DNA from: an uncultured Elusimicrobia bacterium
Lineage (GTDB): Bacteria > Elusimicrobiota > Elusimicrobia > F11
Assembly (NCBI GenBank): GCA_964405835.1
Contig: CAYOPN010000003.1
Coordinates: forward strand, 29,273-93,272
DNA: 64,000 nt
Direction: 5' to 3'
Below, piece after piece: positions 827-57,106 of the stretch (positions are counted from its first letter, which is position 1; every line of letters begins with the position of its first letter). The position numbers and the translations under genes were made by a program. The notes below the pieces were generated by a model that was not told the origin of the DNA, searched no databases, and saw nothing but the letters and a program-made list of their open reading frames with translations.

Positions 827-2110
827 ATGTCACCTTTAAAATTGATTCAAAAGACGATACATAAGGCCATGCATAAATCTAATTCGATTCTGATGACAAA
901 ACAAACAATCGCCTTCTTAATTGGTGTCGTTTTGATGAATTTACCCACAAATGCCGCAGCCGATGCCGGCGTTTCCGGTGGTTTATCCCTATTAAATGAG
1001 GGAAGCGCCCGTTGGTCCTCTTTGGGACAAGCCGGTGTGGCCGCCCACGACGATATCGCTGGCATGGCCTACAATCCGGCCACCCTTGGCTCGCTTTCTT
1101 CCGGTCAAGCTTCCTTCTTATATCAGCAGGGGCTGATTGAAGACGCTTACGGTCAATTTATGATCGGCACCCCGCGCGGTGAAAAATCCGCCTTGGGCTT
1201 CTCGTTTGGTTATTACAACGGCGGAGACATTGAGCTGACCAATGAAAACGGCCAGACCGAAAGCGTGAACGCCCAGACCGATATGACCGCTGCTTTGGGT
1301 TATTCCGTCAAGATGGGCGGCATGTCCATGGGCCTTTCCGGAAAGGTTTTGAATTCGAAATTGATCGACCAATATTCGGGCACCGCCTATGCCGCCGACC
1401 TTGGTATGGTCATGCCGGTGGGTTCGCGCTTGCAACTTGGCGCCGCGGCCCTTAATTATGGAACGCAATTGAAATATGCCGAAGAAGGCGACCCGCTTCC
1501 CCGCATGCTTCAGGTCGGTGGATCGTTCGCCCTCCGTCAAAACGCCACCCTTTTATTGAGCATTCCTTATATGGTGAACGAAAAGATGACCACCCCGTCT
1601 CTGGGTCTTGAGACCTTGTTCGGCCCGCTGGCCATTCGCGCCGGCTACCGTTCGGGCAAAGATGTCCAAGAGTTCACCATGGGCGCCGGCTTTGCGCTGG
1701 GCCGTTCATCTCTCGATTACGCGTTCGGAATGGTCAACCAATTGGACGCTCAGCACAAAGTGAGCATGGCCATGAGATTCGGCGGCGCTTCGGCGACCCC
1801 GGCCTTAATCACCAAGAAACCCACTATTGAACGTACCGTGGCGGCCCCCACGAAACAACGCACCGTAGAACAGACCGCGTCGAAGACCACTACCGTCGAG
1901 CGCCGTCATAGCCTCGGCGGCCAGCAAGTGCTCCGCGCCCCGGCCCGCACCCGCCGCGTGTACATCGTGAAACAAGGCGACACCCTGGCTTCGATTGCGA
2001 AAGAAGAACTTGGCGATAAGCGCCAATGGCAGTCCATTTATTCGGCGAACAAGCACTTGATTGACGACCCGGCCTCAATTGAAAAAGGGATGCGGATCAT
2101 CATCCCGTAA
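827..2110 (+). CDS. Outer-membrane beta-barrel protein with C-terminal LysM peptidoglycan-binding domain (paralogue of 26276..27769)
   Basis: N-terminal signal-like hydrophobic stretch; beta-barrel-like alternating pattern with motif GMAYNPATLG (cf. FYNPAGL in paralogue); C-terminal YIVKQGDTLASIAKEELGD...IIIP is LysM-like. Exact start uncertain among N-terminal Met codons. Confidence 0.6.
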   Translation: MSPLKLIQKTIHKAMHKSNSILMTKQTIAFLIGVVLMNLPTNAAADAGVSGGLSLLNEGSARWSSLGQAGVAAHDDIAGMAYNPATLGSLSSGQASFLYQQGLIEDAYGQFMIGTPRGEKSALGFSFGYYNGGDIELTNENGQTESVNAQTDMTAALGYSVKMGGMSMGLSGKVLNSKLIDQYSGTAYAADLGMVMPVGSRLQLGAAALNYGTQLKYAEEGDPLPRMLQVGGSFALRQNATLLLSIPYMVNEKMTTPSLGLETLFGPLAIRAGYRSGKDVQEFTMGAGFALGRSSLDYAFGMVNQLDAQHKVSMAMRFGGASATPALITKKPTIERTVAAPTKQRTVEQTASKTTTVERRHSLGGQQVLRAPARTRRVYIVKQGDTLASIAKEELGDKRQWQSIYSANKHLIDDPASIEKGMRIIIP

Positions 2111-2229: not shown

Positions 2230-3198
2230 TTAATAGATGGGATTTGGCTGGATGAGGTGGAGGCGGACGTAGTCCGAGACGGAGCTTTCCAATGATTGAA
2301 TCGGTTTTGTGTAGCCGGCGGCTCGGAGCTTCGACAGATCTGCTTCCGTGAAATACTGGTATTGGCCGCGCAACTTCTCAGGCATCGGGAAATAGGTGAT
2401 TTTGGGTTCTTTCTTTAACGCCGCAAACACCGCCAACATGAGATCCTTAAACGAACGGGCCTTCCCAGAGCCGATATTGAAAATTCCGTTTTTCTCCGGG
2501 TTCTCCACGAAATAAAACATCGCGTCATCGACGTCTTTTACATAGACAAAATCACGTTCCTCGGACCCGTCGCCGTAACCGGGGCGCGACGACGCGAACA
2601 ACCGCACCGCGCCGTCCTTCTTAATTTGGTCAACCGCCTTGCACACCATGCTCCGCATGTCGCCCTTGTGGTATTCGTTGGGCCCAAATACATTGAAATA
2701 ACGGAAACCCACGACCTCGTCCGTGAGCTTGTTTTCGACGAGCCAGGAATCAAACGCATGTTTGGATTCGGCATAAGGATTAAGAGGTTTGAATTTCGGT
2801 AGTTCGCGGTCGTCGTCTTTGTAGCCGTTTTTTCCGTCGCCATAGACCGACGCGCTCGAGGCGTAGTGGAACCGTTTGCCGTTGGCCAGCGCCCATTTGG
2901 CGAGCGTCTGGCTGTATTCGAGATTGTTCCGTTTGAGAAAGGCCCGGTCCATTTCGGTGGTGTCCGAGCAAGCGCCCAAATGGACAATCAGGTCGGCGGA
3001 GAGTTTGTTCTTGGACAGCGCGTCCAGCGCGGCCTCGCGCGAAAGGTAGTCGCGGTACTTCTTCCCTCCAAAATTGGCGATGCCGTCCGGCGACGCCATG
3101 GTATCGACAAGCACAATGTCGTCCAACCCCATTTCATTGAGTTTCCGAAGGTAACAACTACCGATAAACCCGGCCGCGCCAGTCAAAAGGATCTTCAT
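2230..3198 (-). CDS. hldD: ADP-L-glycero-D-manno-heptose-6-epimerase
   Basis: MKILLTGAAGFIGS Rossmann motif; VGFRYFNVFGP, FKRDFVYVKDV and YFPMPEKLRGQYQYFTEADLSKLRAAGY align well with E. coli HldD/RfaD. Confidence 0.85.
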   Translation of the reverse strand: MKILLTGAAGFIGSCYLRKLNEMGLDDIVLVDTMASPDGIANFGGKKYRDYLSREAALDALSKNKLSADLIVHLGACSDTTEMDRAFLKRNNLEYSQTLAKWALANGKRFHYASSASVYGDGKNGYKDDDRELPKFKPLNPYAESKHAFDSWLVENKLTDEVVGFRYFNVFGPNEYHKGDMRSMVCKAVDQIKKDGAVRLFASSRPGYGDGSEERDFVYVKDVDDAMFYFVENPEKNGIFNIGSGKARSFKDLMLAVFAALKKEPKITYFPMPEKLRGQYQYFTEADLSKLRAAGYTKPIQSLESSVSDYVRLHLIQPNPIY

Positions 3199-3221: not shown

Positions 3222-3260
3222 TCTTAAAAAACTTTAATTCGGCGTTAATGGGCGGTTAAT
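3222..3260 (+). promoter_or_regulatory. Four phased TTAA(T) half-sites (spacing 10/11/11 bp) upstream of arnB: PmrA/BasR-box-like response-regulator site
   Basis: cTTAAa (3224), tTTAAT (3234), gTTAAT (3245), gTTAAT (3256). OmpR/PhoB-family regulators bind direct repeats at ~11-bp periodicity; the PmrA box is CTTAAT-N5-CTTAAT. Confidence 0.45.
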
Positions 3261-3306
3261 GGTCGAATTTTATGCTGAGGGCATGAAATCAAGTGATTCG
3301 CCCAAA

Positions 3307-4464
3307 ATGCTCCGGCCGACCTTCCTCCCCTTCTCACGACCTTCCGTCGGACAGGAAGAAATCGATGAGATTGTCGACTCCATCAAATCCGGATGGATAA
3401 CAACCGGTCCGAAAGTCGAAAAGTTTGCGGCCGAATTGGCTGGATATGTTGGAGCTCCCTATGTCGCACCGGTTTCATCGGCGACCGCAGGGCTGCATTT
3501 AGCGCTGTTGGCGCACGGGATCGGGCCCGGGGACGAAGTCATTACCACGCCGATGACGTTTGCCGCGACGGCCAATGTGATCGTGTTGACCGGCGCCACG
3601 CCGGTGTTTGCCGATATCGACCGGGCCACCCTTCAAATCCGACCGGAGACCGTCGCCAAGAAAATCACTTCCAAAACGCGCGCCATCATTCCCGTGCATT
3701 ACGCCGGACAACCGGTGGATTTGGATACGTTAATGGACATCGCCAAAAAACACAAGCTGGCCGTCATTGAAGACGCCGCGCACGCCATCGGCACCGAATA
3801 TAAAGGAAAGCGGATTGGTTCGCACGGGAACACGGTTGTGTTCTCGTTTCATCCCAACAAGAACATGACCACCGGGGAAGGCGGCGCGGTCGCAACATTT
3901 GACGAGGACATCCACAAAGCTGTTTCGCTGCTGCGCTTTCACGGCATGGATAAAAACGCTTGGAAACGGTTCGACAAAGCCGGATCGCCGCGTTACGACA
4001 TCGCCTTGCCCGGCTACAAATACAACATGATGGACATTCAAGCGGCGATGGGCCTCCATCAATTAAAGAAATTGGACGGGTTCATCGAAGAACGCACCAA
4101 CCGGGCATTGAAGTACCAGGAATTTTTTAGTGGGCTCTCCGGCCTCATTATTCCGCAGGAAGTTTCCTATGCCCATCGTCACGCGTGGCATCTCTACACG
4201 CCGCTGATCAACACAGACATGCTTTCCATTTCCCGGGACCAATTCATCCAAGAACTAAAGGACCGGAACATCGGCTCCGGTCTCCACTACACCGCCGTGC
4301 ACGAGTTTTCTTTCTACGCCGAAAAATACGGTTACAAACCCGAAGATTTTCCCGAGGCCCACTTTGTATCGGAGCGGATTTTGTCCCTCCCTTTATTCCC
4401 CTCCATGACCGACCAAGACCAGGAAGACGTTGTTGAAGCCGTCATTGGGATCTGTGAACAATGA
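3307..4464 (+). CDS. arnB: UDP-4-amino-4-deoxy-L-arabinose--oxoglutarate aminotransferase (DegT/DnrJ/EryC1 family)
   Basis: MLRPTFLPFSRP...GWITTGPK...SSATAGLH...IPVHYAG aligns with E. coli ArnB (MSEFLPFSRPAMG...). Track start 3259 lies inside the TTAAT repeat; 3283 or 3307 is more plausible. Confidence 0.85.
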   Translation: MLRPTFLPFSRPSVGQEEIDEIVDSIKSGWITTGPKVEKFAAELAGYVGAPYVAPVSSATAGLHLALLAHGIGPGDEVITTPMTFAATANVIVLTGATPVFADIDRATLQIRPETVAKKITSKTRAIIPVHYAGQPVDLDTLMDIAKKHKLAVIEDAAHAIGTEYKGKRIGSHGNTVVFSFHPNKNMTTGEGGAVATFDEDIHKAVSLLRFHGMDKNAWKRFDKAGSPRYDIALPGYKYNMMDIQAAMGLHQLKKLDGFIEERTNRALKYQEFFSGLSGLIIPQEVSYAHRHAWHLYTPLINTDMLSISRDQFIQELKDRNIGSGLHYTAVHEFSFYAEKYGYKPEDFPEAHFVSERILSLPLFPSMTDQDQEDVVEAVIGICEQ

Positions 4465-5153
4465 AAGACATCTCGATCGCGATTCCGATATTTAACGAGG
4501 AAAAAAATATTCCGCTGTTGCTGCCGCGGCTGCTGACGGTCCTTGATTCAATGAAGCGGCCTTACGAAATCATTTTTGTGGACGATGGAAGCCGCGACGG
4601 CTCGTTGAGACTGCTCAAGAAAGCGGCGGAACAATATCCCGGACGCATCCACGTTATCGGTCTTTCCAGAAACATCGGCCAACATCAGGCACTTTTGATT
4701 GCCTTCAAAAGTGTGCAAGGCCGCCACATCGTGACGCTCGACGCGGACCTCCAGAACCCACCGGAAGAAATCCCGAAAATCCTCGCAAAACTGGACGCCG
4801 GCCACGACGTCGTGGGAGGGATCCGCATGAACCGCCAAGACACTTTATTCCGGAAAACGGCGTCGCGCCTCGTAAACAGGATAACGTCTTTGATCACGCA
4901 CCTGGACCTTCAAGATTGCGGATGCATGTTGCGCGGTTATTCCCATGACGTTGTCGAAAAGATTGTCGCCTGCGATAAGCGGTCGGCATTTATTCCGGCC
5001 CGCGCGCTTTTGTTCGCGCGCAACCCCATCGACATCCCCGTCGCCCACGCATCCCGCGCCGAGGGCGAGTCAAAATACTCGCTCACCAAATTGGTCCGTT
5101 TGAATTTTGACGTCATGCTCGGTTTCTCCGCGTCGGGACGGAAGGCCCTATGA
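4461..5153 (+). CDS. arnC: Undecaprenyl-phosphate 4-deoxy-4-formamido-L-arabinose transferase (GT2), short form without C-terminal TM helices
   Basis: IPIFNEE...IIFVDDGSRDGS...TLDADLQNPPEEIP...CMLRGY...ESKYS aligns with the first ~230 residues of E. coli ArnC. Ends 5153 with ATGA overlap into the next gene, so there is no room for the ~90-aa TM tail. Confidence 0.8.
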   Translation: MKDISIAIPIFNEEKNIPLLLPRLLTVLDSMKRPYEIIFVDDGSRDGSLRLLKKAAEQYPGRIHVIGLSRNIGQHQALLIAFKSVQGRHIVTLDADLQNPPEEIPKILAKLDAGHDVVGGIRMNRQDTLFRKTASRLVNRITSLITHLDLQDCGCMLRGYSHDVVEKIVACDKRSAFIPARALLFARNPIDIPVAHASRAEGESKYSLTKLVRLNFDVMLGFSASGRKAL

Positions 5154-6043
5154 GCAGCCGGCCGCGCATCGTGGTATTTGCCTATTCGGAAGTGGGCCAT
5201 GCCTGTTTAAAAGCATTACTGGACCGCGGAGAAAACGTGGTCTGCGTTTATACGCATGAAGACAACCCGGATGAATCCCTTTGGTTTCCCTCAGTCGCCA
5301 AACTGGCGGCCGAGCATTCATTGCTGGTCCGGACGGAAGAATTATCGGGAGCTGATCGTCCCCCTTTCAGTTCCCACCGCCCGGACCTTATATTCTCGTT
5401 CTATTACCGGAACCTCATACCCAAATCCATTTTGGATTTGGCGCCGCTTGGAGCGTTCAACATGCACGGATCGCTTTTACCGCGCTACCGCGGGCGGGCC
5501 CCCATAAATTGGGCCGTGTTAAACGGCGAGGAAAAAACCGGCGCCACCTTACACGCCATGGTGGAAAAAGCCGATGCCGGCGATATCGTGGATCAGGAAG
5601 CGGTCGACATCGGTCCAGACGATACGGCTGCAACAGTCCAATCCCGGGTCACAAAGGCCGCGGTGACCGTGTTGGTTCGCCAACTGGAAAATTTGAAATC
5701 AGGCCGCGCGCCGCGCATCCCGCAAGACTCCTCCAAAGCCACGGTGTTCGGACGCCGCCGGCCCGAAGATGGCTCCATCAACTGGAATTGGCCGGCCAAA
5801 CGTGTCCACGATTTGGTGCGCGCTGTTTCGCGTCCCTACCCCGGGGCTTTCGGAATGATCAACGGGGGAAAATTTCGAATCTGGAAGTCTCAGCTAACCA
5901 ACGAAACGGCGATCGTTAAAAACCCCGGCATGGTCCAGGTTCGGGAAAAACAGACCTTTGTCACTTGTGGAGACGGAAAACTTTTGGAAATTATTGAAAT
6001 GCAAAAGGAGCCAATCAATGAAAGTATTAATACTCGGCGTTAA
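5150..6043 (+). CDS. arnA: UDP-4-amino-4-deoxy-L-arabinose formyltransferase (ArnA N-terminal domain as a separate ORF)
   Basis: [19 protein letters not shown]...[10 protein letters not shown]...[22 protein letters not shown]...[13 protein letters not shown] matches the E. coli ArnA formyltransferase domain; stop TAA at 6041-6043. Confidence 0.8.
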
Positions 6044-7064
6044 CGGATTTATCGGGAACGCCCTCACCGAACGGATTTTGACCACGACGAATTGGGAGGT
6101 GTACGGCCTCGACGTCGGTTCCGACAAAATCAAACCGTTCCTAACCAACCCGCGCTTCCGTTATTTGGAAGGCGACATTTCTATTAATAAGGAATGGACC
6201 GAATACCACGTCAAAAAAGCGGATGTCGTACTCCCGCTCGTGGCCATTGCAACGCCGGCGGCCTATGTTGAGAGACCGCTCGAAGTGTTCCAGCTCGACT
6301 TCGAGGAAAACCTGCGCATCATCAAGCAGTGCGTAAAATACAAGAAGCGACTGGTATTCCCTTCCACGTCCGAAGTCTACGGCATGTGCCCCGATGAGGA
6401 GTTCGACGAAGAAGTCTCGAACATGGTCTATGGCCCCATCCACAAACAGCGCTGGATTTATTCCTGCTCGAAACAACTGCTTGACCGCGTCATTTACGCG
6501 TTCGGCCAATCCGAAGGGCTGCGGTTCACGTTATTTCGTCCATTCAACTGGATCGGCCCGAACCTGGACAACATCGACGCGCCGAAAGAAGGTTCGTCAC
6601 GGGTGCTCACGCAGTTCCTCCACAATATTCTCTATAAACAGCCGATCAAATTGGTCGACGGCGGCACGCAACGGCGTTGCTTCACTTATATTTCCGACGG
6701 CGTGGACGCGTTGATGAAAATTCTCGTGAACGAGAAGAAATGCGCGGACGGCCAGATTTTTAACATCGGCAATCCGGACAACGATTTTTCGATCAAGGAC
6801 TTGGCGGAAAAACTGATCGCGGCCGTTGCCAAATACCCGGGATACGAAGACCTGGCGGCCAAAGCGAAGATCGTCCCTATGCATTCGGACGCCTATTACG
6901 GGCTGGGATATCAAGACATCATGACGCGCAAGCCATCGCTGCGCCACATTCGCCACACGCTCGGATGGCAGCCACAGGTTTCCATGGACGAGGCCCTGGC
7001 GAAAACGCTGGACTTCTACCTCAAGAACCGGAAACCGGGCGTCCGCTCTCACGCGACCGTATGA
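6018..7064 (+). CDS. arnA: UDP-glucuronic acid decarboxylase/dehydrogenase (ArnA C-terminal domain as a separate ORF)
   Basis: [21 protein letters not shown]...[18 protein letters not shown]...[11 protein letters not shown]...[10 protein letters not shown] matches E. coli ArnA 317-660. Start ATG 6018 preceded by AAGGAG; overlaps the FT ORF by 26 nt. Confidence 0.8.
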
Positions 7065-7960
7065 CTTCCATACCGCGCATCGCGCTGAAGGTGGATTGCG
7101 ACACCTTCGCAGGAACGCGGAACGGCATTCCCGCGCTGTTGCGGACATTTGACAGGACCCATGTGCGGGCCAGCTTCTTTTTCACTCTCGGCCCCGACCG
7201 GTCCGGGCTCGCCATCAAACGCGTGTTCACGCAGAAAGGGTTCCTAAAAAAAATGTTCCGTTCAAATGCCGCTTCTCTCTACGGTCCCAAGACCGCGCTT
7301 TATGGGACGCTCCTTCCGGCGCCGCTGATTGGAAAAAATTTAAAAAATGCAATCCGTTCCGTTATGTCGGCCGGTCATGAAATCGGTGTGCACGGCTGGG
7401 ACCATGTACGCTGGCACGACCAGTTGGATTACATGACGGAAAGCGAAATAGCGCACGACTACGGAAGAGCTCACCGCATGTTTGAAGAAATTTTCGGCCG
7501 TCGTGCGCGGGCCTCAGCGGCACCCGGATGGCACGCAACCGCAACTTCATTAAAAATCCAGGACCAGTACGATATGCTCTACGCATCCGACACACGCGGC
7601 GGCCCGCCTTTCTTCCCTCATGTTGAAGGAACAACATTCAAGCTTCTTCAGATCCCCACCACGCTACCCACTTGGGACGAAGCGCTGGTTGACCCGACAT
7701 TCCGCGACCGGCACGCATTGATCGGACGTTACAACACGTCCATTCAAGGCACCGAAGTCCATACCATTCATACCGAGGTGGAAGGAGGACGGTACAATTT
7801 CGCTTTCGAAGACCAGCTTAAAGCATGGTCGTCGCTGGGATTCGCTTTTATCACGATGGAAGAAATCGCGCGCGAAACTCTTTCGGACATTGGAAACGTT
7901 CCGGTAAAAGAAATTGCGCGCGTCAGCATTCTGCACCGCGGCGGACTTGTGTCGGCATGA
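7061..7960 (+). CDS. arnD: 4-deoxy-4-formamido-L-arabinose-phosphoundecaprenol deformylase (polysaccharide deacetylase fold)
   Basis: [27 protein letters not shown]...[10 protein letters not shown]...[11 protein letters not shown] aligns with E. coli ArnD. ATG 7061 overlaps the arnA(DH) stop (ATGA). Confidence 0.8.
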
Positions 7961-9387
7961 GCAAGAAATTCTGGCTCTTCTTATTGGCGCTCGTGCCGCT
8001 TTACATGACGTGGACGTTCGACCATTCTCTTTGGAACCCGGACGAAACGCGCGACGCCGGCATTGCGAGCGAGATGTACCGGACCGGCGAATTCGCGATA
8101 CCGAAACTTAATGGCGAACCCTTCCTTGAAAAACCTCCTCTTTATTATTGGACGTGCGTTGCGGTTTACAAACTGACCGGCCGTGTCACCGCCGGCACCA
8201 CGCGACTTCCATCGGCCTTGTACGGGATCCTCGGAGTACTATTCACATTCCTCATTGGCCGGCGACTCTTCAACGAGCGCGCGGGTCTTTTTGCCGCGGC
8301 GATCCTGGCCACGACGTCGCAGTATTTCCGCATGAGTCATTTCGCGATGATGGACATCTCATTGGCCGCCATGGTGGCGGGCGCGCTGTTTTTCTATTTG
8401 AAAGGCTCGCGCGTGGGATTCGCTGTATTTACCGTGCTGGCTTTTTATGCGAAAGGATTTCTTGGAGTTGTCCTTCCCGGCATTGTCGTAACGCTCGACT
8501 TGCTTCTTGATAAAAAACCAAAAGAACTCGCCAAGACCATCGCGGTCAGCGCCCTGGTATTTCTCGCGCTAACGTTGCCATGGTTTTGGGAACTGTGGCA
8601 CAAAGGCGGCCGGAAGTTCCTCGAAGTATTTTTCATCGACAACCACTGGAAAAGGTACACCGTCGACACCGGCGACCACACCGAACACTTCTGGTTTTTT
8701 TACCTGTTGTCGTTTCCGGTCGACTTTCTGCTCTGGACCCCGATTTTTTTTGGCGCGCTAAGAAGTTTATCGCTGAATATTCCAGACCATTTCGAATCCA
8801 GGCCCAAACGGTTTCTATGGTTATGGTTTTTTGGGCTGCTGCTGTTTTTCACGGTTTCCTCCAGCAAACGAAGCCTTTATTTGTTGCCGCTTTTTCCAGC
8901 GGCCGCTTTACTGGCAGGGACGTGGCTGGATGAGGTGATCAAAAAAGAATCGTGGGCCTATTGGGCCTTTGGCGGCGTGGGCGCTGCGATTGCGTTCGCA
9001 AGTTTTCTGTTCGCGGGCCGGTTGGACAATGAAAAAACTTTTGTCCCGTTGTGCGAAGTTATTGCCGCAAACCGCACAGGAAAAGACCTGGTGGGGTTCG
9101 ATATGAACGAAATGGAGCGCGGGGTCTTCAGTTTTTATTTGGGTGGGCCCATCGCAAATGTTATTCATGCGGAAGACCTTCAAAAAATGATGGCGCAGGA
9201 ACCATCAAAAAAGTTTTTGGTGCTTTCCAGCAAAAACAAGCGGGTCTCAATGGCTCCATTGGAGCCGGACTTGAAACTTTTGTTCGAATACCGGCCGCAA
9301 AAAAAGACGCGGTCCTATCTCCTTTATGAAAGTACTGATCATCGAAGACGACAAAACGATAAGGTCCTTCATCGCCAAGGGGCTTAA
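7957..9387 (+). CDS. arnT: Undecaprenyl phosphate-alpha-4-amino-4-deoxy-L-arabinose arabinosyl transferase (GT83)
   Basis: [65 protein letters not shown] is the typical ArnT/PMT N-terminus; multi-TM. ATGA overlap with arnD; 3' end overlaps the RR gene by 62 nt. Confidence 0.8.
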   Translation: MSKKFWLFLLALVPLYMTWTFDHSLWNPDETRDAGIASEMYRTGEFAIPKLNGEPFLEKPPLYYWTCVAVYKLTGRVTAGTTRLPSALYGILGVLFTFLIGRRLFNERAGLFAAAILATTSQYFRMSHFAMMDISLAAMVAGALFFYLKGSRVGFAVFTVLAFYAKGFLGVVLPGIVVTLDLLLDKKPKELAKTIAVSALVFLALTLPWFWELWHKGGRKFLEVFFIDNHWKRYTVDTGDHTEHFWFFYLLSFPVDFLLWTPIFFGALRSLSLNIPDHFESRPKRFLWLWFFGLLLFFTVSSSKRSLYLLPLFPAAALLAGTWLDEVIKKESWAYWAFGGVGAAIAFASFLFAGRLDNEKTFVPLCEVIAANRTGKDLVGFDMNEMERGVFSFYLGGPIANVIHAEDLQKMMAQEPSKKFLVLSSKNKRVSMAPLEPDLKLLFEYRPQKKTRSYLLYESTDHRRRQNDKVLHRQGA

Positions 9388-11800: not shown

Positions 11801-11883
11801 GCCGGCGTGGCGGAATGGCAGACGCGTCAGACTCAAAATCTGATACTCGCAAGGGTGTGTAGGTTCAAGTCCTATCGCCGGTA
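11801..11883 (+). tRNA. tRNA-Leu (anticodon CAA), long variable arm, CCA not encoded
   Basis: Acceptor GCCGGCG/CGCCGGT; D-stem GCG/CGC; anticodon stem TCAGA/TCTGA with loop CTCAAAA (CAA); long variable arm TACTCGCAAGGGTGTG; T-arm GTAGG-TTCAAGT-CCTAT; discriminator A. Confidence 0.7.
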
Positions 11884-52117: not shown

Positions 52118-52867
52118 ATGAGCAACCAGACCTTCATCGCATTTGACCACGCCGGCGTGGTCCGCGGATCAAAACACCTGGTGTTGTGGGCAGCGATGCT
52201 GTTAATGACGCCGGTGCTGGGGACCGCCGTTGATATGGAACAATTGAAGGCCGAGGTATCGGTCTCGCCGGGCCGCCTTGCCGAACAACTCAACGTGGAA
52301 ATCCGCCCGGCCACAGACCAATTGCCTCCCCATTTGCGGTACTCATTCGACGACGACAAATTGTCCGATCAAATAAATCACCGCGAACGCCAGTTGTTGA
52401 TCATTCCCATCGATGCTTACCGCGCGCAGTACAACAAACGGGAAATGAAGGCCTTCGACAAGCGTTTGTTCGGACTTAAACAGGTGATTTACCGCAACAT
52501 CGGCGAATACGTCGGCCAGATCCCAATTTTCCCTGTGATAAATGCGCGGCAGGCCTTTCATGCCGCGATCGCTCAATTGGGATTTGACGGCGGGGGCGGG
52601 GTGCGTTTCATTACGCGGTATGGAAAGGAAGGAAGCATCAGCACCAACAAAAACATTTTTTACACATTCCAAGGCGTGACCAGAAACGGCAAAGCGCTGG
52701 TCTGCCTGTTCTATCCGATTGCGGTCCGCAACTTACCTCTGACCGCAGAAGACAGCACGTGCGCCATGTACATCGACCAGCAAACACCCGAGCGCTTCAC
52801 ACCGCACCTGCACGACCTGGACAAGATTGTCCAAGCCATTCAGATAAAACAAGAAAAGAAACGCTAG
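52118..52867 (+). CDS. Hypothetical protein with N-terminal TM/signal segment
   Basis: HLVLWAAMLLMTPVLGTAV hydrophobic segment; no recognised motif. Confidence 0.35.
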   Translation: MSNQTFIAFDHAGVVRGSKHLVLWAAMLLMTPVLGTAVDMEQLKAEVSVSPGRLAEQLNVEIRPATDQLPPHLRYSFDDDKLSDQINHRERQLLIIPIDAYRAQYNKREMKAFDKRLFGLKQVIYRNIGEYVGQIPIFPVINARQAFHAAIAQLGFDGGGGVRFITRYGKEGSISTNKNIFYTFQGVTRNGKALVCLFYPIAVRNLPLTAEDSTCAMYIDQQTPERFTPHLHDLDKIVQAIQIKQEKKR

Positions 52868-53568
52868 GCCGCCATCTCCCAGACCAGCACTTCCGCGCCT
52901 GATTTTTCGTCGGCCGTGAGTTTCGGCGCGCCGGCCGCGGTCAACCGCACCGCGTCACCTTGCGCCAGTTTTCCCGCGCCTTCCAACGTAGCCGATCCTT
53001 TCGCGATGAACACATGCGCGTAGCGCGCATCGGGGACCTTCACCGACTCACCGGCTTTTAAACGCCCACCCCAAAGCACGGCGCCTTTTTGACGAATGGA
53101 GATGGCCGCGTTGTGGTTGCGACCGGACGCAATCGGCACGAGGCCGCCTTTGTCCATCTCCTTATTAATATCCAGCTGTTCGTAACTGGGGTTAATGGAC
53201 TCCTTATCCGGGAGCACCCACATCTGGACCAGGTGCACAGGGTTGTCGCCGCTCGGGTTCATTTCGGAATGCCAAATACCGCGGCCTGCGCTCATGCGCT
53301 GCGCGAGACCGGGATAAATAATCCCTTTATTCCCCACCGAGTCCTTGTGTTCAAGCTCACCCGAGAGCACCCAGGTAACGATCTCCATGTCCTGATGCGG
53401 GTGCGTCGAGAAACCGGAACCCGGGTGGATCACGTCGTCGTTGTTGACGAGCAATAACCCGTGGTTTGTGTTATCGGCATCATAATGTTGACCAAAGCTG
53501 AAGCTGTGATACGAATCCAGCCAACCGATGTTGGTCTTAAACCTCTCGTTTGCGCGTTTAATGTCCAT
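52864..53568 (-). CDS. Pirin-family (cupin) protein
   Basis: GFSTHPHQDMEIVTWVLSGELEHKDSVGN...MSAGRGIWHSEMN matches the pirin metal-binding block. Confidence 0.85.
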   Translation of the reverse strand: MDIKRANERFKTNIGWLDSYHSFSFGQHYDADNTNHGLLLVNNDDVIHPGSGFSTHPHQDMEIVTWVLSGELEHKDSVGNKGIIYPGLAQRMSAGRGIWHSEMNPSGDNPVHLVQMWVLPDKESINPSYEQLDINKEMDKGGLVPIASGRNHNAAISIRQKGAVLWGGRLKAGESVKVPDARYAHVFIAKGSATLEGAGKLAQGDAVRLTAAGAPKLTADEKSGAEVLVWEMAA

Positions 53569-54726
53569 TTATATCTCCATGAGCAGCCTTTGCATGTCTC
53601 TATCGGAAACGAAGCGCCGGGTGTCGGCGAATATTTTGAATTTCCGGAAGAACGTCTCAAAATTCTCTTGTGACATTCTATAACCGAGTTGGCGGATTTT
53701 AGTTTCCAGGGCCCTTCGTCCGCTACGGTTGGTGAGCGGCAAGGAAGTTCCCGGCGCGCCCACGTCTTCGGCACGCATGATCTCATAGGTGGAGCGATTT
53801 TTCAGCATGCCGTCTTGATGGATGCCCGATCCGTGCGAGAACGCGTTTCCGCCAACGACCGCCTTGTTGGCCGGCACGGCCATGTTCATGGCGCGCGCCA
53901 CCATTTGACTGGTCGCATAGAGTTCCGGCGTGTTCACGGTGGTGCGCCGACCGAAGAAGTCCGCGCGGGTCTTGAGCGCCATAACGACCTCCTCCAGAGA
54001 ACAGTTGCCGGCCCTCTCTCCCACGCCGTTTACGGTGCAATCGATTTGTTCCACTCCCGCCCGCACCGCAGCCAACGAATTGGCGACCGCCATGCCCAGA
54101 TCGTCATGGCAATGGACGGACAACCGCGCGTGACAGATATTCCGAACATTGGTTTGCAGATAACGGATGAGCCCCACGAATTCATCGGGCGTCGCGTAAC
54201 CGACCGTATCGGCCACGTTGATCGTGGTTGCGCCCGCGTCGATGACCGCCTCGACCATTTGCGCCAAGTAGGCGCGGTCCGCGCGTGAGGCGTCTTCCGG
54301 CGTGAATTGAACGTCGGCGACAAACGATTTGGCGAACGCCACGCCTTTCACGGCCTGTTCCAACGCTTCGTCACGCGATTTGCGGAGTTTGTGTTCCAGG
54401 TGGATGTCAGAAGAAGCAATGAATACGTGGATCCGCCGGCGGTGCGCGGGTTCGATCGCCTGCCAACAGGCCTCGATGTCTTTGTCCACACAGCGCCCAA
54501 ACGCGGTGATGACCGGCGCGTTCTCAGCGCGCCCCACCGTTTCGGCGATTTTGCGGACCGCGCCCAACTCGGCCGGCGATGAGACCGGGAACCCGGCCTC
54601 GATGGCGTCGACTCCCAGTTTGTGCAATTGCTTCGCGATCGCGAGCTTCTGCTCCGGCCTCAAATGACAACCCGGCGCCTGCTCCCCATCTCTTAACGTT
54701 GTGTCCGATACGAATACCTTCTCCAT
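53569..54726 (-). CDS. 2-isopropylmalate/homocitrate/citramalate synthase family enzyme (HMGL-like, short form without LeuA regulatory domain)
   Basis: TTLRDGEQAPG...; HCHDDLGMAVANSLAAVRAGV...; DCTVNGVGERAGN. Confidence 0.8.
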   Translation of the reverse strand: MEKVFVSDTTLRDGEQAPGCHLRPEQKLAIAKQLHKLGVDAIEAGFPVSSPAELGAVRKIAETVGRAENAPVITAFGRCVDKDIEACWQAIEPAHRRRIHVFIASSDIHLEHKLRKSRDEALEQAVKGVAFAKSFVADVQFTPEDASRADRAYLAQMVEAVIDAGATTINVADTVGYATPDEFVGLIRYLQTNVRNICHARLSVHCHDDLGMAVANSLAAVRAGVEQIDCTVNGVGERAGNCSLEEVVMALKTRADFFGRRTTVNTPELYATSQMVARAMNMAVPANKAVVGGNAFSHGSGIHQDGMLKNRSTYEIMRAEDVGAPGTSLPLTNRSGRRALETKIRQLGYRMSQENFETFFRKFKIFADTRRFVSDRDMQRLLMEI

Positions 54727-54761
54727 GATCTTTTCCTTACCATCGCCACGGAGGGGTCCCT

Positions 54762-54797
54762 AAAAATAAAAAAACCCATCCGCGTAGCGAATGGGTT
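54762..54797 (-). terminator. Intrinsic terminator in the leader of the leuA-family gene (attenuator candidate)
   Basis: Minus strand: AAACCCAUUCGC-UAC-GCGGAUGGGUUU then UUUUUAUUUUUAG, ~36 nt before the ATG. Confidence 0.5.
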
Positions 54798-54830
54798 TGT
54801 TTGATTGTTCAGCTTTGTTTTATCTGTGCT

Positions 54831-54920
54831 TTACGCAGCCACAACGAACCCATTTCCACGGCCAATAAGGGCGAGGATCGGTAGAAGGTTCGTATTAATA
54901 AGGTGGTTTACGTTAAACAT
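54831..54920 (-). CDS. Candidate 29-aa leader peptide rich in Leu/Ile/Val codons (MFNVNHLINTNLLPILALIGRGNGFVVAA)
   Basis: ATG at 54920 (weak AGGT upstream). 5 Leu (CTT x3, CTA, CTC) + 3 Ile + 3 Val. GGAAATGGGTTCG in its 3' end can pair with the terminator's 5' arm AAACCCATTCGC (antiterminator). Confidence 0.35.
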   Translation of the reverse strand: MFNVNHLINTNLLPILALIGRGNGFVVAA

Positions 54921-55055
54921 CGACGGAAACCTAGCAAAATGCGAGGAAGAGAAGCAAACCCTCTTTTTTTTCCTCCTTTAGATGTAACCTCCGGCCCGCA
55001 CCCGGCGTATTGGGAGCTGAGAGGTGTGATTTAAATCAACAAAAAGGGGCTATTA

Positions 55056-55430
55056 ATGAAAAAGCTGAATAAGTTAATGACCGCGGCCATCGCGGGCATT
55101 ATGAGCGCGTCGTTTGCGGGATCCACGCTGCAGGCCGAAGAGGCCAAAGCGAAGGACGCAAAACCGGCGGCCGAAAAACACGCCTGCAAAGGCGAACATG
55201 GTTGTAAAGGCGACCACGCCTGCAAAGGCAAAGGCGCTTGTAAAGGCGAGCACGGATGCAAAGGCAAAGACGGCTGCAAGGGCCATAAGAAAGACCACAA
55301 GTGCGAAGACATGTGCTCGAAAGAGTGCTGTGTTAAGGCCCGCGGCGCTGAGAAGAAAGGCAGCGATGCTTGCAACGGCCCAAACGGCTGCGGCGGGAAA
55401 AATAGCTGTGGTGGAAAAGAAAAGAAATAA
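55056..55430 (+). CDS. Secreted Cys/His/Lys-rich small protein with (H/G)(A/G)CKG repeats: putative RiPP precursor for the downstream MNIO enzyme (bufferin-like)
   Basis: Sec signal MKKLNKLMTAAIAGIMSASFAGSTLQA; core HACKGEHGCKGDHACKGKGACKGEHGCKGKDGCKGHKKDHKCEDMCSKECC...ACNGPNGCGGKNSCGG (13 Cys). Confidence 0.6.
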   Translation: MKKLNKLMTAAIAGIMSASFAGSTLQAEEAKAKDAKPAAEKHACKGEHGCKGDHACKGKGACKGEHGCKGKDGCKGHKKDHKCEDMCSKECCVKARGAEKKGSDACNGPNGCGGKNSCGGKEKK

Positions 55431-56292
55431 AAAAGATTCTTCACTGGGGGTCGGTTTAGGCCTCCGGACGGTGCATTACAAGCACATCCTAAAGCACCGT
55501 CCGGGGGTCCCCTGGTTTGAGATCATTTCCGAGAACTACATGGGCAACACCGCCGGTTCCGGCGGGCGCTCCGTGCAGGTTCTCGATGAAATCCGTAAAG
55601 ATTATCCCGTTGTCATGCACGGGGTTTCCCTCTCCATTGGGTCGAAAGACCCCCTCGATTTTGATTATTTGAAACGCCTGAAGCGCTTGGCCAGCCGGAT
55701 CGAGCCAATGTGGATGTCCGATCATTTGTGCTGGACCGGCGTGAACGGCCACAATTTGCACGATCTTTTGCCGCTCCCCTACACGAAAGAAACCATCGAC
55801 CATCTGGTCTCCCGCATCTCGCAAATCCAAGATTTTCTCGGCCGGCAAATCCTTATGGAAAATGTTTCCAGCTACGTTTCGTATGAACATTCGGAGATGA
55901 CCGAATGGCAATGCCTGACCGAAGTCGCCCAAAAGGCCGACTGCTTGGTGCTGTTGGACGTGAACAACATCCATGTGAGCGCCGTGAACCATAAATTTGA
56001 CGCCGTGGAATTTATAAACGGCATCCCGAAAGACCGCGTGGGTCAATTCCATCTGGCCGGTTACTCCGACATGGGCACGCACTTGATCGACACCCACGAC
56101 CATCCGGTGTCCGATCCCGTTTGGAAACTTTACGCGAAGGCCGTGGAGCGCTTCGGCGCCGTGCCGACATTGATCGAATGGGACGACAACATTCCCCCCT
56201 TCAAACGGCTCTGGCAGGAAGCACAACACGCTGAGAAAATCCAAAAGAAACACCTCTCCCATGCCGACAACCAACGCACCGTCCTTATCTGA
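55366..56292 (+). CDS. MNIO family enzyme (DUF692, MbnB/BufB-like TIM-barrel); start codon uncertain
   Basis: LGVGLGLRTVHYKHIL...VPWFEIISENYM...MHGVSLSIGS...LIEWDD pattern typical of DUF692. Only in-frame ATG is 55366 (overlaps precursor by 65 nt); otherwise non-ATG start near 55444 (CTG) or 55471 (GTG). Confidence 0.7.
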   Translation: MLATAQTAAAGKIAVVEKKRNKKDSSLGVGLGLRTVHYKHILKHRPGVPWFEIISENYMGNTAGSGGRSVQVLDEIRKDYPVVMHGVSLSIGSKDPLDFDYLKRLKRLASRIEPMWMSDHLCWTGVNGHNLHDLLPLPYTKETIDHLVSRISQIQDFLGRQILMENVSSYVSYEHSEMTEWQCLTEVAQKADCLVLLDVNNIHVSAVNHKFDAVEFINGIPKDRVGQFHLAGYSDMGTHLIDTHDHPVSDPVWKLYAKAVERFGAVPTLIEWDDNIPPFKRLWQEAQHAEKIQKKHLSHADNQRTVLI

Positions 56293-57106
56293 TCTCCAAG
56301 CCTGGATGAAGTGGGTGATCATGCACCCGCAAGGGGCCTCCTTTGCCCTGAAAAAACCGCACGCGCTCACGCGCCTGTGCGTGCCCGTGATCGGGCAAAC
56401 CGCCGAGGTGCCGCGTGAGGAACGCCTTTCCATATATGGGACCGCGTATTTTCTGCGGATACTAGGCGCGCTCGCGTCAAATTTTAGCGCTGTCAAAAAC
56501 ACAGCCGGCGAAAAGGCGTTCAACCAAGCAGCTCGCGCATATCTCGTGAAATTTCCTTCTAAATACAAAAGCATCGACGATATCGGCGCGGAACTGCCCT
56601 CTTTTTTGAGACGGCGCCCGCTTTCCAAGAAATATCCTTTTCTTTCCGACCTCGCCGCGCTGGATTGGGCTGCGCACCGCGCTTTTTTTGCGGATGACGA
56701 ACCAGCCATGGACCGCAAAAGGTTGGCGGGCCTTTCCGGACGGACCTGGGCCAACGCCGTTTTTCATTTGGACCCCTCCACGCGATTGCTGGACCTCTCT
56801 TGGCCGGTGGCGGACCTATGGAAGGACGACGGGCTATGGCCTGCACGACGGCTCCGTTCATTAAAACCGGAACGCCAATGCGCGCTTGTTTTCCGGCGGT
56901 CCGACAAAAAGGTGCGGGTCCGTATACTGGAGCCAGCGCAATATGACGTGCTGGACCAGCTCGACCGCGGCCATACTTTCCAAAAAGCGCTGCTCTTTAT
57001 TTCCAAGAAACATTTCTCAAAGGAAGCCACGCCCCCAATCGGCGCGTGGTTCGAGCAATGGACGGCCGACGGCCTCTTTTCTCGGATCGACATTCCCTCA
57101 AGATGA
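56261..57106 (+). CDS. DUF2063-family protein (MbnC/BufC-like partner of MNIO enzymes)
   Basis: ERLSIYGTAYFLRILGALA and LSDLAALDWAAHRAFFADD resemble conserved DUF2063 blocks; 32-nt overlap with the DUF692 gene. Confidence 0.7.
   Translation: MPTTNAPSLSDLQAWMKWVIMHPQGASFALKKPHALTRLCVPVIGQTAEVPREERLSIYGTAYFLRILGALASNFSAVKNTAGEKAFNQAARAYLVKFPSKYKSIDDIGAELPSFLRRRPLSKKYPFLSDLAALDWAAHRAFFADDEPAMDRKRLAGLSGRTWANAVFHLDPSTRLLDLSWPVADLWKDDGLWPARRLRSLKPERQCALVFRRSDKKVRVRILEPAQYDVLDQLDRGHTFQKALLFISKKHFSKEATPPIGAWFEQWTADGLFSRIDIPSR

Follow-up and report, generated by a model that had tools for sequence, protein, structure and literature searches.

A probable leucine-responsive leader-peptide attenuator of a truncated 2-isopropylmalate-synthase-like gene in an uncultured Elusimicrobia bacterium

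In the leu attenuator of enterobacteria (leuL), the ribosome stalls at the leucine codons of a leader and the transcript can form alternative 1:2, 2:3 and 3:4 hairpins; in Escherichia coli leuL the leucine run is followed by a stretch rich in Arg and Gly. The subject of this report is a leader on the minus strand of a 64,000 bp stretch of DNA from an uncultured Elusimicrobia bacterium (assembly GCA_964405835.1, contig CAYOPN010000003.1, positions 29,273 to 93,272; the whole stretch is termed the window and position 1 is its first base). This leader lies upstream of a 2-isopropylmalate-synthase-like gene and, judging from its sequence and that of its relatives, very probably acts as a leucine-responsive ribosome-mediated (leader-peptide) transcription attenuator of an operon formed by the synthase and a pirin-family gene. 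A survey of 2010 gave leader peptides as known only in Proteobacteria and Actinobacteria and added the Firmicutes (PMC2965389), and the lineage of the window lies outside the phyla with documented leader peptides. The only result of a full-text literature search combining Elusimicrobia with leader peptides and attenuation was an unrelated study of HisR.

The likeness to the enterobacterial leu attenuator (Rfam RF00512) consists of a short Leu-rich open reading frame (ORF), three alternative hairpins and an intrinsic terminator, placed before leuA. The two differ in that the Leu codons of the window leader are interspersed with codons for Ile, Ala and Gly, whereas leuL has a run of four, and in that the window ORF has no Shine-Dalgarno and starts 6–7 nt after a −10 box. 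The regulated genes would also be a truncated LeuA paralogue and a pirin rather than leuABCD, and there is no sequence or covariance-model similarity between the two leaders. A scan of the whole window against Rfam at gathering thresholds gave no T-box, riboswitch or other relevant cis-regulatory match, and a permissive scan of positions 54500–55300 (E ≤ 10) gave only sub-threshold noise (ohsC, mir-7445 and RUF4). RF00512 (Leu_leader) had no match on the coding strand, its sole match being on the opposite strand and, at 14.4 bits, below the gathering score of 50. In a control, this model reached its gathering score on neither the Photobacterium nor the Steroidobacteraceae leu leader described below; since it misses genuine leu leaders, its failure excludes a narrow family only and not the mechanistic class. 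In actinobacterial leuA leaders, Leu codons are described as pairing with the leuA Shine-Dalgarno in a pseudoknot known as the LEU element (PMC1262725), whereas the conserved alternatives of the window family involve the terminator and not the Shine-Dalgarno (no pseudoknot search was made).

The leader is contained in a gap of 329 bp between a divergent HvfA-like gene (plus strand, from 55056) and the synthase gene (54726 to 53569, minus strand). An earlier note on this DNA had proposed here a leader ORF of 29 codons with 5 Leu, 3 Ile and 3 Val, followed by a strong intrinsic terminator and combined with two alternative pairings in the manner of leu/ilv attenuators. The ORF listing and direct reading bear out such an ORF at 54831–54920 (minus strand; MFNVNHLINTNLLPILALIGRGNGFVVAA), which begins with ATG, ends with a TAA stop, has exactly this composition and includes the tandem CTT-CTA at codons 12–13. 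Its ATG precedes that of the synthase (54726) by 194 nt, close to the 190 nt first given. An A-rich spacer of 33 nt separates the ORF from the terminator, a 12-bp stem at 54798–54772 (AAACCCATTCGC-TAC-GCGGATGGGTTT, with six G-C pairs among the 12 and a 3-nt loop), which agrees with the earlier description. The 5′ arm of the stem (region 3, AAACCCAUUCGC, 54787–54798) and the 3′ arm (region 4, GCGGAUGGGUUU, 54772–54783) were each identified by a terminator scan, RNAalifold and covariation, and the T-run TTTTATTTTT (54762–54771), read directly and also called by the scan, follows. The Shine-Dalgarno of the synthase (AAGGA) was read at 54734–54738, and its distance from the end of the T-run at 54762 is about 23 nt and not 36 nt as had been stated. 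The T-run and the synthase ATG are only 35 nt apart, too little for a separate promoter, so that transcription of the synthase must pass through the terminator.

Two segments of the ORF are involved in the pairings, both of which were found as originally described. Region 1 (ACGAACCU, 54886–54893) forms the 5′ strand of the protector stem 1:2 according to minimum-free-energy (MFE) folds, RNAalifold and covariation (columns 34–41/82–89). Region 2 (AAUGGGUUCGU, 54844–54854) can, on the basis of folds and pair counts, pair either with region 1 or with the terminator 5′ arm. The first pairing, through GGGUUCGU (54851–54844), is part of the MFE fold, and the second uses AAUGGGUU (54854–54847), an exact contiguous 8-bp Watson-Crick complement of AACCCAUU (54797–54790). 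The first Leu codon of a cluster at codons 12–19 (L L P I L A L I, 54864–54887) is overlapped by region 1, which lies directly before it; codon counts and the alignment suggest this cluster as the regulatory codons and the proposed stall site when Leu-tRNA is scarce. Region 2 lies about 36 nt downstream, where the footprint of a ribosome stalled at the cluster would not reach it, and the stop codon lies only 10 nt beyond region 2, so that a terminating ribosome would cover region 2. When the 122 nt upstream of the terminator were dinucleotide-shuffled, 38 of 5000 sequences contained a complement of at least 8 bp to the terminator 5′ arm, and 1 of 5000 combined such a complement with an upstream 7-bp partner of that segment. 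The pairings are thus rarely reproduced by shuffling, which argues that the leader elements are non-random.

The same leader was found directly upstream of the synthase in 11 of 11 independent relatives (L001/L002, L003, L004, L005, L086/L087, L088/L089, L090/L091, L092, L105 and L106, plus L102, which was obtained by a pattern scan of metagenome DNA), all of them uncultured metagenomic contigs. Family-wide counts given here refer to these together with the window (12 leaders). The synthases form a clade of short proteins (383–428 aa as called, 56–75% identical to that of the window) which ranks above the mass of full-length LeuA proteins. Examples of the relatives' leader peptides are MFLQNQIIANLPIQLLGLIGRRDGFVLAA, MFHQFTIIANLILALGLLIRPRGGFALV and MNFKIQLQENLALLLLLSGRGMGFCGSK, and the core of their terminator after the ORF is ACCCATCC...GGATGGGTTTT. 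An ATG-initiated ORF and the alternative pairings are present in every relative, as the note's proposed comparison required, and the 1:2/2:3/3:4 leader-peptide logic that it had put forward is supported by all of its elements in the window and by their retention in these 11 orthologous leaders. The loci differ in the genes on the leader's far side, which indicates that the leader travels with the synthase.

The leader ORF carries a coding signature from which translation is predicted. It starts with ATG in all 12 leaders and is 27–29 codons long, and in every case a window of eight codons located at codons 8–18 holds four to six Leu. Leucine makes up 76 of the 336 leader residues (22.6%) compared with 10.1% in 16 genes of the window. 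Three aligned columns of the codon alignment are Leu in 11/11, 12/12 and 12/12 leaders, with an entropy of 0 at codon positions 1 and 2 and of 1.49, 1.65 and 0.65 bits at position 3. Gaps inside the ORF are of 3 nt among the ten closer leaders of the MAFFT alignment, except for one 1-nt gap in L092, while gaps in the spacer after the stop are of 1, 2 and 4 nt. The spacing of regions 1 and 2, counted by eye in five leaders, is 33, 36 or 39 nt. The conserved C-terminal R-G-G-F of the peptide is the translation of GGN-GGG-UUY in region 2, and because the same letters form the region 2 pairing, conservation of this part of the peptide is imposed by the RNA. With regard to the amino acid sensed, the leucine part of the suggested leu/ilv-type sensing stands, as the Leu columns are invariant. 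The Ile/Val part does not, since Ile positions interchange with Leu across the leaders and Val is not conserved; the predicted signal is therefore leucine and not branched-chain amino acids generally.

The free MFE fold of the 234-nt leader contains the 1:2 stem and the terminator (z-score −2.5), and both were recovered by RNAalifold, run unguided on the MAFFT alignment A1. In the 1:2 helix, 97.7% of cells are paired and double changes occur at three of the eight pairs, one pair being divided 5:5 between G-C and A-U and another appearing as GC, AU, GU and UG; CGAACC:GGUUCG compared with CAAACC:GGUUUG is an example of compensation. The terminator helix 3:4 is paired in 96.4% of cells and has one pair with double changes. 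Taken jointly, the two helices are paired in 96.9% of cells with 16 compensatory cells, a score reached in 0 of 500 shuffles, and slid registers give at most 61% pairing. The antiterminator 2:3 (columns 78–86 with 143–151) is paired in 93.5% of cells compared with at most 62% in slid registers. The RNA structure prediction which the earlier note had proposed as a check for mutually exclusive folds supports its claim. When region 1 was masked by a 30-nt ribosome footprint at the Leu cluster and the RNA was cut before arm 4, the 2:3 helix folded in 12 of 12 leaders and was often extended. Energies of these masked segments are −17.6 kcal/mol for the window and −20 to −34 kcal/mol for the relatives, with terminators at −15.6 to −19.3 kcal/mol. 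A conserved ORF, a Leu cluster, a terminator and mutually exclusive antiterminator and protector stems, which together characterize ribosome-mediated attenuators, are thus all present.

From the sequence elements, their conservation and covariation, the coding signature and the fold energies, we infer a scheme of transcription start, stalling, kinetic folding order and physiological leucine response. An extended −10 promoter would place the start of transcription on the A of the leader ATG or 1–2 nt from it, giving a leaderless mRNA for translation of the 29-codon ORF. Under a shortage of charged Leu-tRNA, the ribosome would stall at codons 12–18 and cover region 1, leaving region 2 free to pair with the terminator 5′ arm (2:3), in which case no terminator would form and RNA polymerase would read into the synthase. 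When leucine is plentiful, the ribosome would reach the stop codon and occlude region 2, so that 3:4 would form and transcription would end at the T-run. If the ORF is not translated at all, the 1:2 stem would form and 3:4 would again terminate.

Several points weigh against this interpretation. The support is entirely computational, with leucine-dependent read-through being a prediction, and the use of 2-oxoisovalerate as substrate by the synthase is likewise predicted from sequence. The Leu codons are interspersed (LLPILAL) and form no pure run, nor are they rare overall, CTT accounting for 17% and CTA, the only rare one, for 4% of the Leu codons in the window genes. Covariation in the 2:3 helix is minimal with one compensatory event, which occurs in the window (A-U in place of the G-C of the other leaders) and matches the unusual CCCATTC arm of the window. 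The twelve sequences are kin and the shuffle controls consequently overstate significance; the compensatory changes in 1:2 are clear despite this. With just 8 bp, the antiterminator of the window folds at −17.6 kcal/mol, which gives it no advantage in stability over the terminator (−17.1 kcal/mol), and the full-length masked MFE fold of the window still keeps the terminator. As the two states are about equal in energy and the masked full-length fold retains the terminator, the on/off decision would have to be kinetic; such a decision, as in classical attenuators, would rely on co-transcriptional folding. Full-length masked MFE folds are not decisive, and segment folds mimicking the co-transcriptional order were more informative.

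An independent small gene would account for some of the same observations. In this case, the leader would encode a hydrophobic micropeptide and/or a small RNA (sRNA) of about 150 nt with its own terminator, and its placement before the synthase would be coincidental or an added trans role would be present. Both the conservation of the peptide sequence and the strength of the terminator, which is doubled in eight relatives, would fit such a gene, and the accessible parts of two reports on Sinorhizobium describe sRNAs derived from attenuators and trans-acting leader peptides (PMC7298713; PMC7968998). However, each of the 12 intact loci has the leader immediately before the short synthase, with a single match in the window and none elsewhere, even as the far-side neighbours differ. 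The short distance from terminator to Shine-Dalgarno leaves no space for a separate synthase promoter, and the alternative 2:3 pairing would be purposeless in a gene of this kind, which makes the explanation improbable.

The helices could also sense a ligand, a protein or uncharged tRNA directly, with the ORF being incidental. Helices 1:2, 2:3 and 3:4 are conserved as such an RNA-only switch would require, and part of the peptide conservation is driven by the RNA, given that R-G-G-F corresponds to the GGN-GGG-UUY needed for pairing. The permissive Rfam scan gave no riboswitch or T-box match, however, and a conserved multi-helix junction resembling a ligand pocket is not seen. The ORF of the closer leaders is gapped by whole codons (apart from the single nucleotide in L092) as opposed to the 1-, 2- and 4-nt gaps of the spacer, all 12 leaders have ATG starts, and the stop follows shortly after region 2. 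Moreover, the invariant Leu codons have a free third base and are situated in the part of the 1:2 hairpin that is mostly loop. A switch without translation is for these reasons considered very unlikely. A chance ORF beside an ordinary terminator, either bidirectional or left over from a neighbouring gene, is effectively refuted by the comparative data, for although 29-codon ORFs occur frequently (8 kb contain 103 ORFs of 25 aa or more) and the terminator scan gave 7 sites in 2.5 kb with 4.0 expected, no gene ends here, the upstream neighbour is divergent, the antisense strand of the synthase is non-coding, the shuffle test opposes chance and the arrangement is conserved in 11 relatives. Ribosome-mediated attenuation thus remains the preferred explanation, and the leader adds a well-supported family absent from Rfam to the attenuators of this type, the mechanism itself being classical leu-type.

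The candidate promoter of the window is TTGCTT-18-TGcTAGGTT (54957–54928), made up of a putative −35 hexamer TTGCTT (54952–54957), 18 nt upstream of TAGGTT, and a putative extended −10 TGcTAGGTT (54928–54936) ending 7 nt before the leader ATG. Both assignments draw on the relatives, which have TTGACA or TTGACC at the place of the −35. The distance from the end of a TAnnnT hexamer to the leader ATG is 6–7 nt in the window and in each of the 10 relatives whose upstream sequence is available (L102 begins 16 nt before its ATG and was left out). The hexamer appears as TAGGTT, TATCTT, TATGTT, TATAAT or TAATTT and is usually preceded by TG, and TTGACA or TTGACC occurs at a spacing of 17–18 nt in 7 of the 12 leaders. 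A promoter scan called TTGACA-17-TATGTT in L086 and TTGACC-17-TATCTT in L005. No Shine-Dalgarno-like motif was found before the leader ATG in any of the 12 leaders. With the promoter ending 6–7 nt before the ATG and no Shine-Dalgarno in front of it, the mRNA for the leader ORF is probably leaderless. A precedent exists in the ilvB leader of Corynebacterium diphtheriae, in which transcription starts at the first base of the leader ORF (PMC5784534).

The synthase gene (53569–54726, minus strand) encodes a 385-aa protein with profile matches to the HMGL-like and HCS_D2 domains. It passes the NCBIfam model NF002086 for 2-isopropylmalate synthase (572 bits with a cutoff of 532), covering profile positions 5–382 of 516. 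In a domain profile search of this protein, the C-terminal LeuA_dimer leucine feedback domain was not found. It is plausible, from these sequence features, that attenuation replaces the lost allosteric leucine feedback of the synthase, which would suggest an evolutionary trade whereby loss of the leucine-sensing domain from the enzyme is made up for by a leucine-sensing leader. Leptospira LeuA2 is described in the accessible part of PMC12345160 as an isopropylmalate synthase which has no regulatory domain and which leucine does not inhibit. The window synthase resembles it in having no LeuA_dimer but is far below the cutoff of the LeuA2 model NF042434 (250.6 compared with 500 bits), and a leader-peptide attenuator for LeuA2 is not mentioned in that part of the paper.

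Abutting the synthase stop is a pirin-family gene (52864–53568, minus strand; profile match), which is probably the second gene of the operon as the pair recurs in relatives. Synthase followed by pirin was found in the window and in 5 of the 11 relatives (L001/L002, L003, L004, L005 and L088/L089), the contigs of two further relatives ending just past the synthase. In three of these six loci the pirin gene abuts or overlaps the synthase and in the other three it lies 50–120 nt downstream. A leucine-related role would be a gain in annotation for this otherwise unexplained pair. No other branched-chain amino-acid genes were found in the 64-kb window. A sulfate/ABC transporter cluster is often near the synthase–pirin pair. 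Leptospira LeuA2 is induced by superoxide together with sulfur metabolism according to the same accessible text (PMC12345160), which may or may not be related to the pirin/sulfate-transporter context seen here.

The 12 leaders were used to build a covariance model, which was run against 674 kb of sequence including the window and 80 full-length leuA loci. It gave one match in the window (54766–54920, minus strand; 111 bits) and no other there, and all 12 intact loci have the leader directly upstream of a short synthase. A search of genome contigs with the synthase listed full-length LeuA proteins at 48–55% identity, with no short-form synthase locus among the matches listed; these served as the negative set and as the source of two further leaders. 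The full-length leuA loci gave only two weak matches to the covariance model, L073 at 20.5 bits (E = 0.4) and L082 at 19.4 bits (E = 0.7). L073 is from a Steroidobacteraceae metagenome-assembled genome (MAG) (MNTPTQHLLLIGLILLAPKRCGTTG, 2685–2830, plus strand) and L082 from Photobacterium damselae (MKTVFTLLLSLLLIALPLRG, 2818–2950, plus strand), and in both a Leu/Ile-rich leader with a terminator directly precedes a full-length leuA. These leaders differ from that of the window in preceding a feedback-regulated LeuA of full length instead of a short synthase. Among the matches listed, LeuA of Steroidobacteraceae is one of the closest full-length relatives of the window synthase (54–55% identity), and the 'LLIGL' and CTTATTGGCC of its leader resemble the window leader. 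These are hints that the Steroidobacteraceae and window genes, with their leaders, may share a common ancestry; as the covariance matches are weak, homology of the leader with L073 and L082 is only a possibility.

The leu leader of C. diphtheriae (MNRANLLLLRRGGSQA) and the window family (ANLLLALGLLLRPRGGF) share an 'ANLLL...RGG' pattern (PMC5784534). Corynebacterium belongs to a phylum different from that of the window, and the resemblance is likely a convergence that arises from Leu codons followed by a G-rich stem. For this leu leader gene no transcription start could be assigned (PMC5784534).

A second terminator is located 10–15 nt after the first in 8 of the 12 leaders, mostly with identical arm sequences. 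The window retains the first terminator only, together with a decayed 5′ arm of the second. This putative remnant (GGGACCCCTCCGTGGCGATGG, 54740–54760, minus strand) was recognised by eye in comparison with L004, L086 and L105, and has lost its 3′ arm and T-run. Where both terminators are present, arm 4 is complementary to arm 5, and the 4:5 hairpin (−14 to −21 kcal/mol) is similar in energy to the second terminator itself. The 4:5 helix is paired in 98.6% of cells. Three substitutions in arm 5 are compensated in arm 6; all are transitions and still allow wobble pairing with the invariant arm 4. In full-length masked folds of these tandem-terminator leaders, the thermodynamic optimum nests 3:6 around 4:5. 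A 'domino' may be envisaged in which 2:3 frees arm 4 and arm 4 captures arm 5, so that both terminators would be disarmed together; acting in series, they would keep basal read-through very low in the off state. A leucine attenuator that is leaderless and has a domino double terminator is tentatively proposed, with some doubt, for the family, and its tight control would take the place of the allosteric leucine feedback lost by the synthase; the evidence is thin in that duplication by common descent explains most of the 4:5 complementarity. A literature search combining tandem terminators, attenuator and leader peptide found no paper. If true, the tandem-terminator relatives would represent a compact design from nature, with two gates opened by a single decision, and be of interest to engineers of tight RNA switches.

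The pattern scan of metagenome DNA gave 12 matches, of which three are leaders (L095, L101, which is on the same contig as L086, and L102) and nine consist of a tRNA T-arm (GGGTTCGAATCC) followed by a similar terminator. Seven freshwater contigs (L094, L096, L097, L099, L100, L103 and L104) have a tRNA gene and then a terminator with the core ACCCATCC…GGGATGGGTTTT. Since these tRNA-linked terminators share its core, the sequence of the leader terminator is not specific to the attenuator. L095 was excluded from the family. It is a soil contig of 9.3 kb with two inverted, frame-shifted leader copies (3811–3955, minus strand, and 5361–5501, plus strand), no synthase and no ORF longer than 163 aa, and is probably an error-rich, rearranged or chimeric assembly. 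P0047/L107 was likewise rejected as a member of the short clade, being a canonical leuA in which a frameshift separates a 417-aa catalytic part from a 120-aa LeuA_dimer part (L107, 3001–4564). It shows that a 'short LeuA' can be an artefact of assembly or a pseudogene, unlike the clade of the window. The leuA of L107 lies within an ilvH-ilvC-psd-pssA-leuA-leuC-leuD cluster and is from the same sample as L005.

The divergent neighbour of the leader belongs to an HvfABC-like cluster for a ribosomally synthesized and post-translationally modified peptide (RiPP) at 55056–57106 (plus strand). Its members are a repetitive, basic ORF of 124 aa that resembles a precursor and has a signal-peptide-like N-terminus, an enzyme of the MbnB/TglH/ChrH family (PF05114, E = 3e-111) and an HvfC-family protein with a RiPP recognition element (RRE). 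The NrdA protein of the window is approximately 73% identical to those of Elusimicrobiota MAGs, its nearest named relatives, and 70–71% identical to that of Edaphobacter, a weak taxonomic signal for what is probably an Elusimicrobiota-like lineage. Elsewhere in the window, an Arn-like lipid A aminoarabinose cluster is found at 3259–9387 (plus strand) with an ArnB-like aminotransferase and an ArnT-like transferase, along with one tRNA gene at 11801–11883 (plus strand) and a gene for a PorV/PorQ-family outer-membrane protein at 827–2110 (plus strand).

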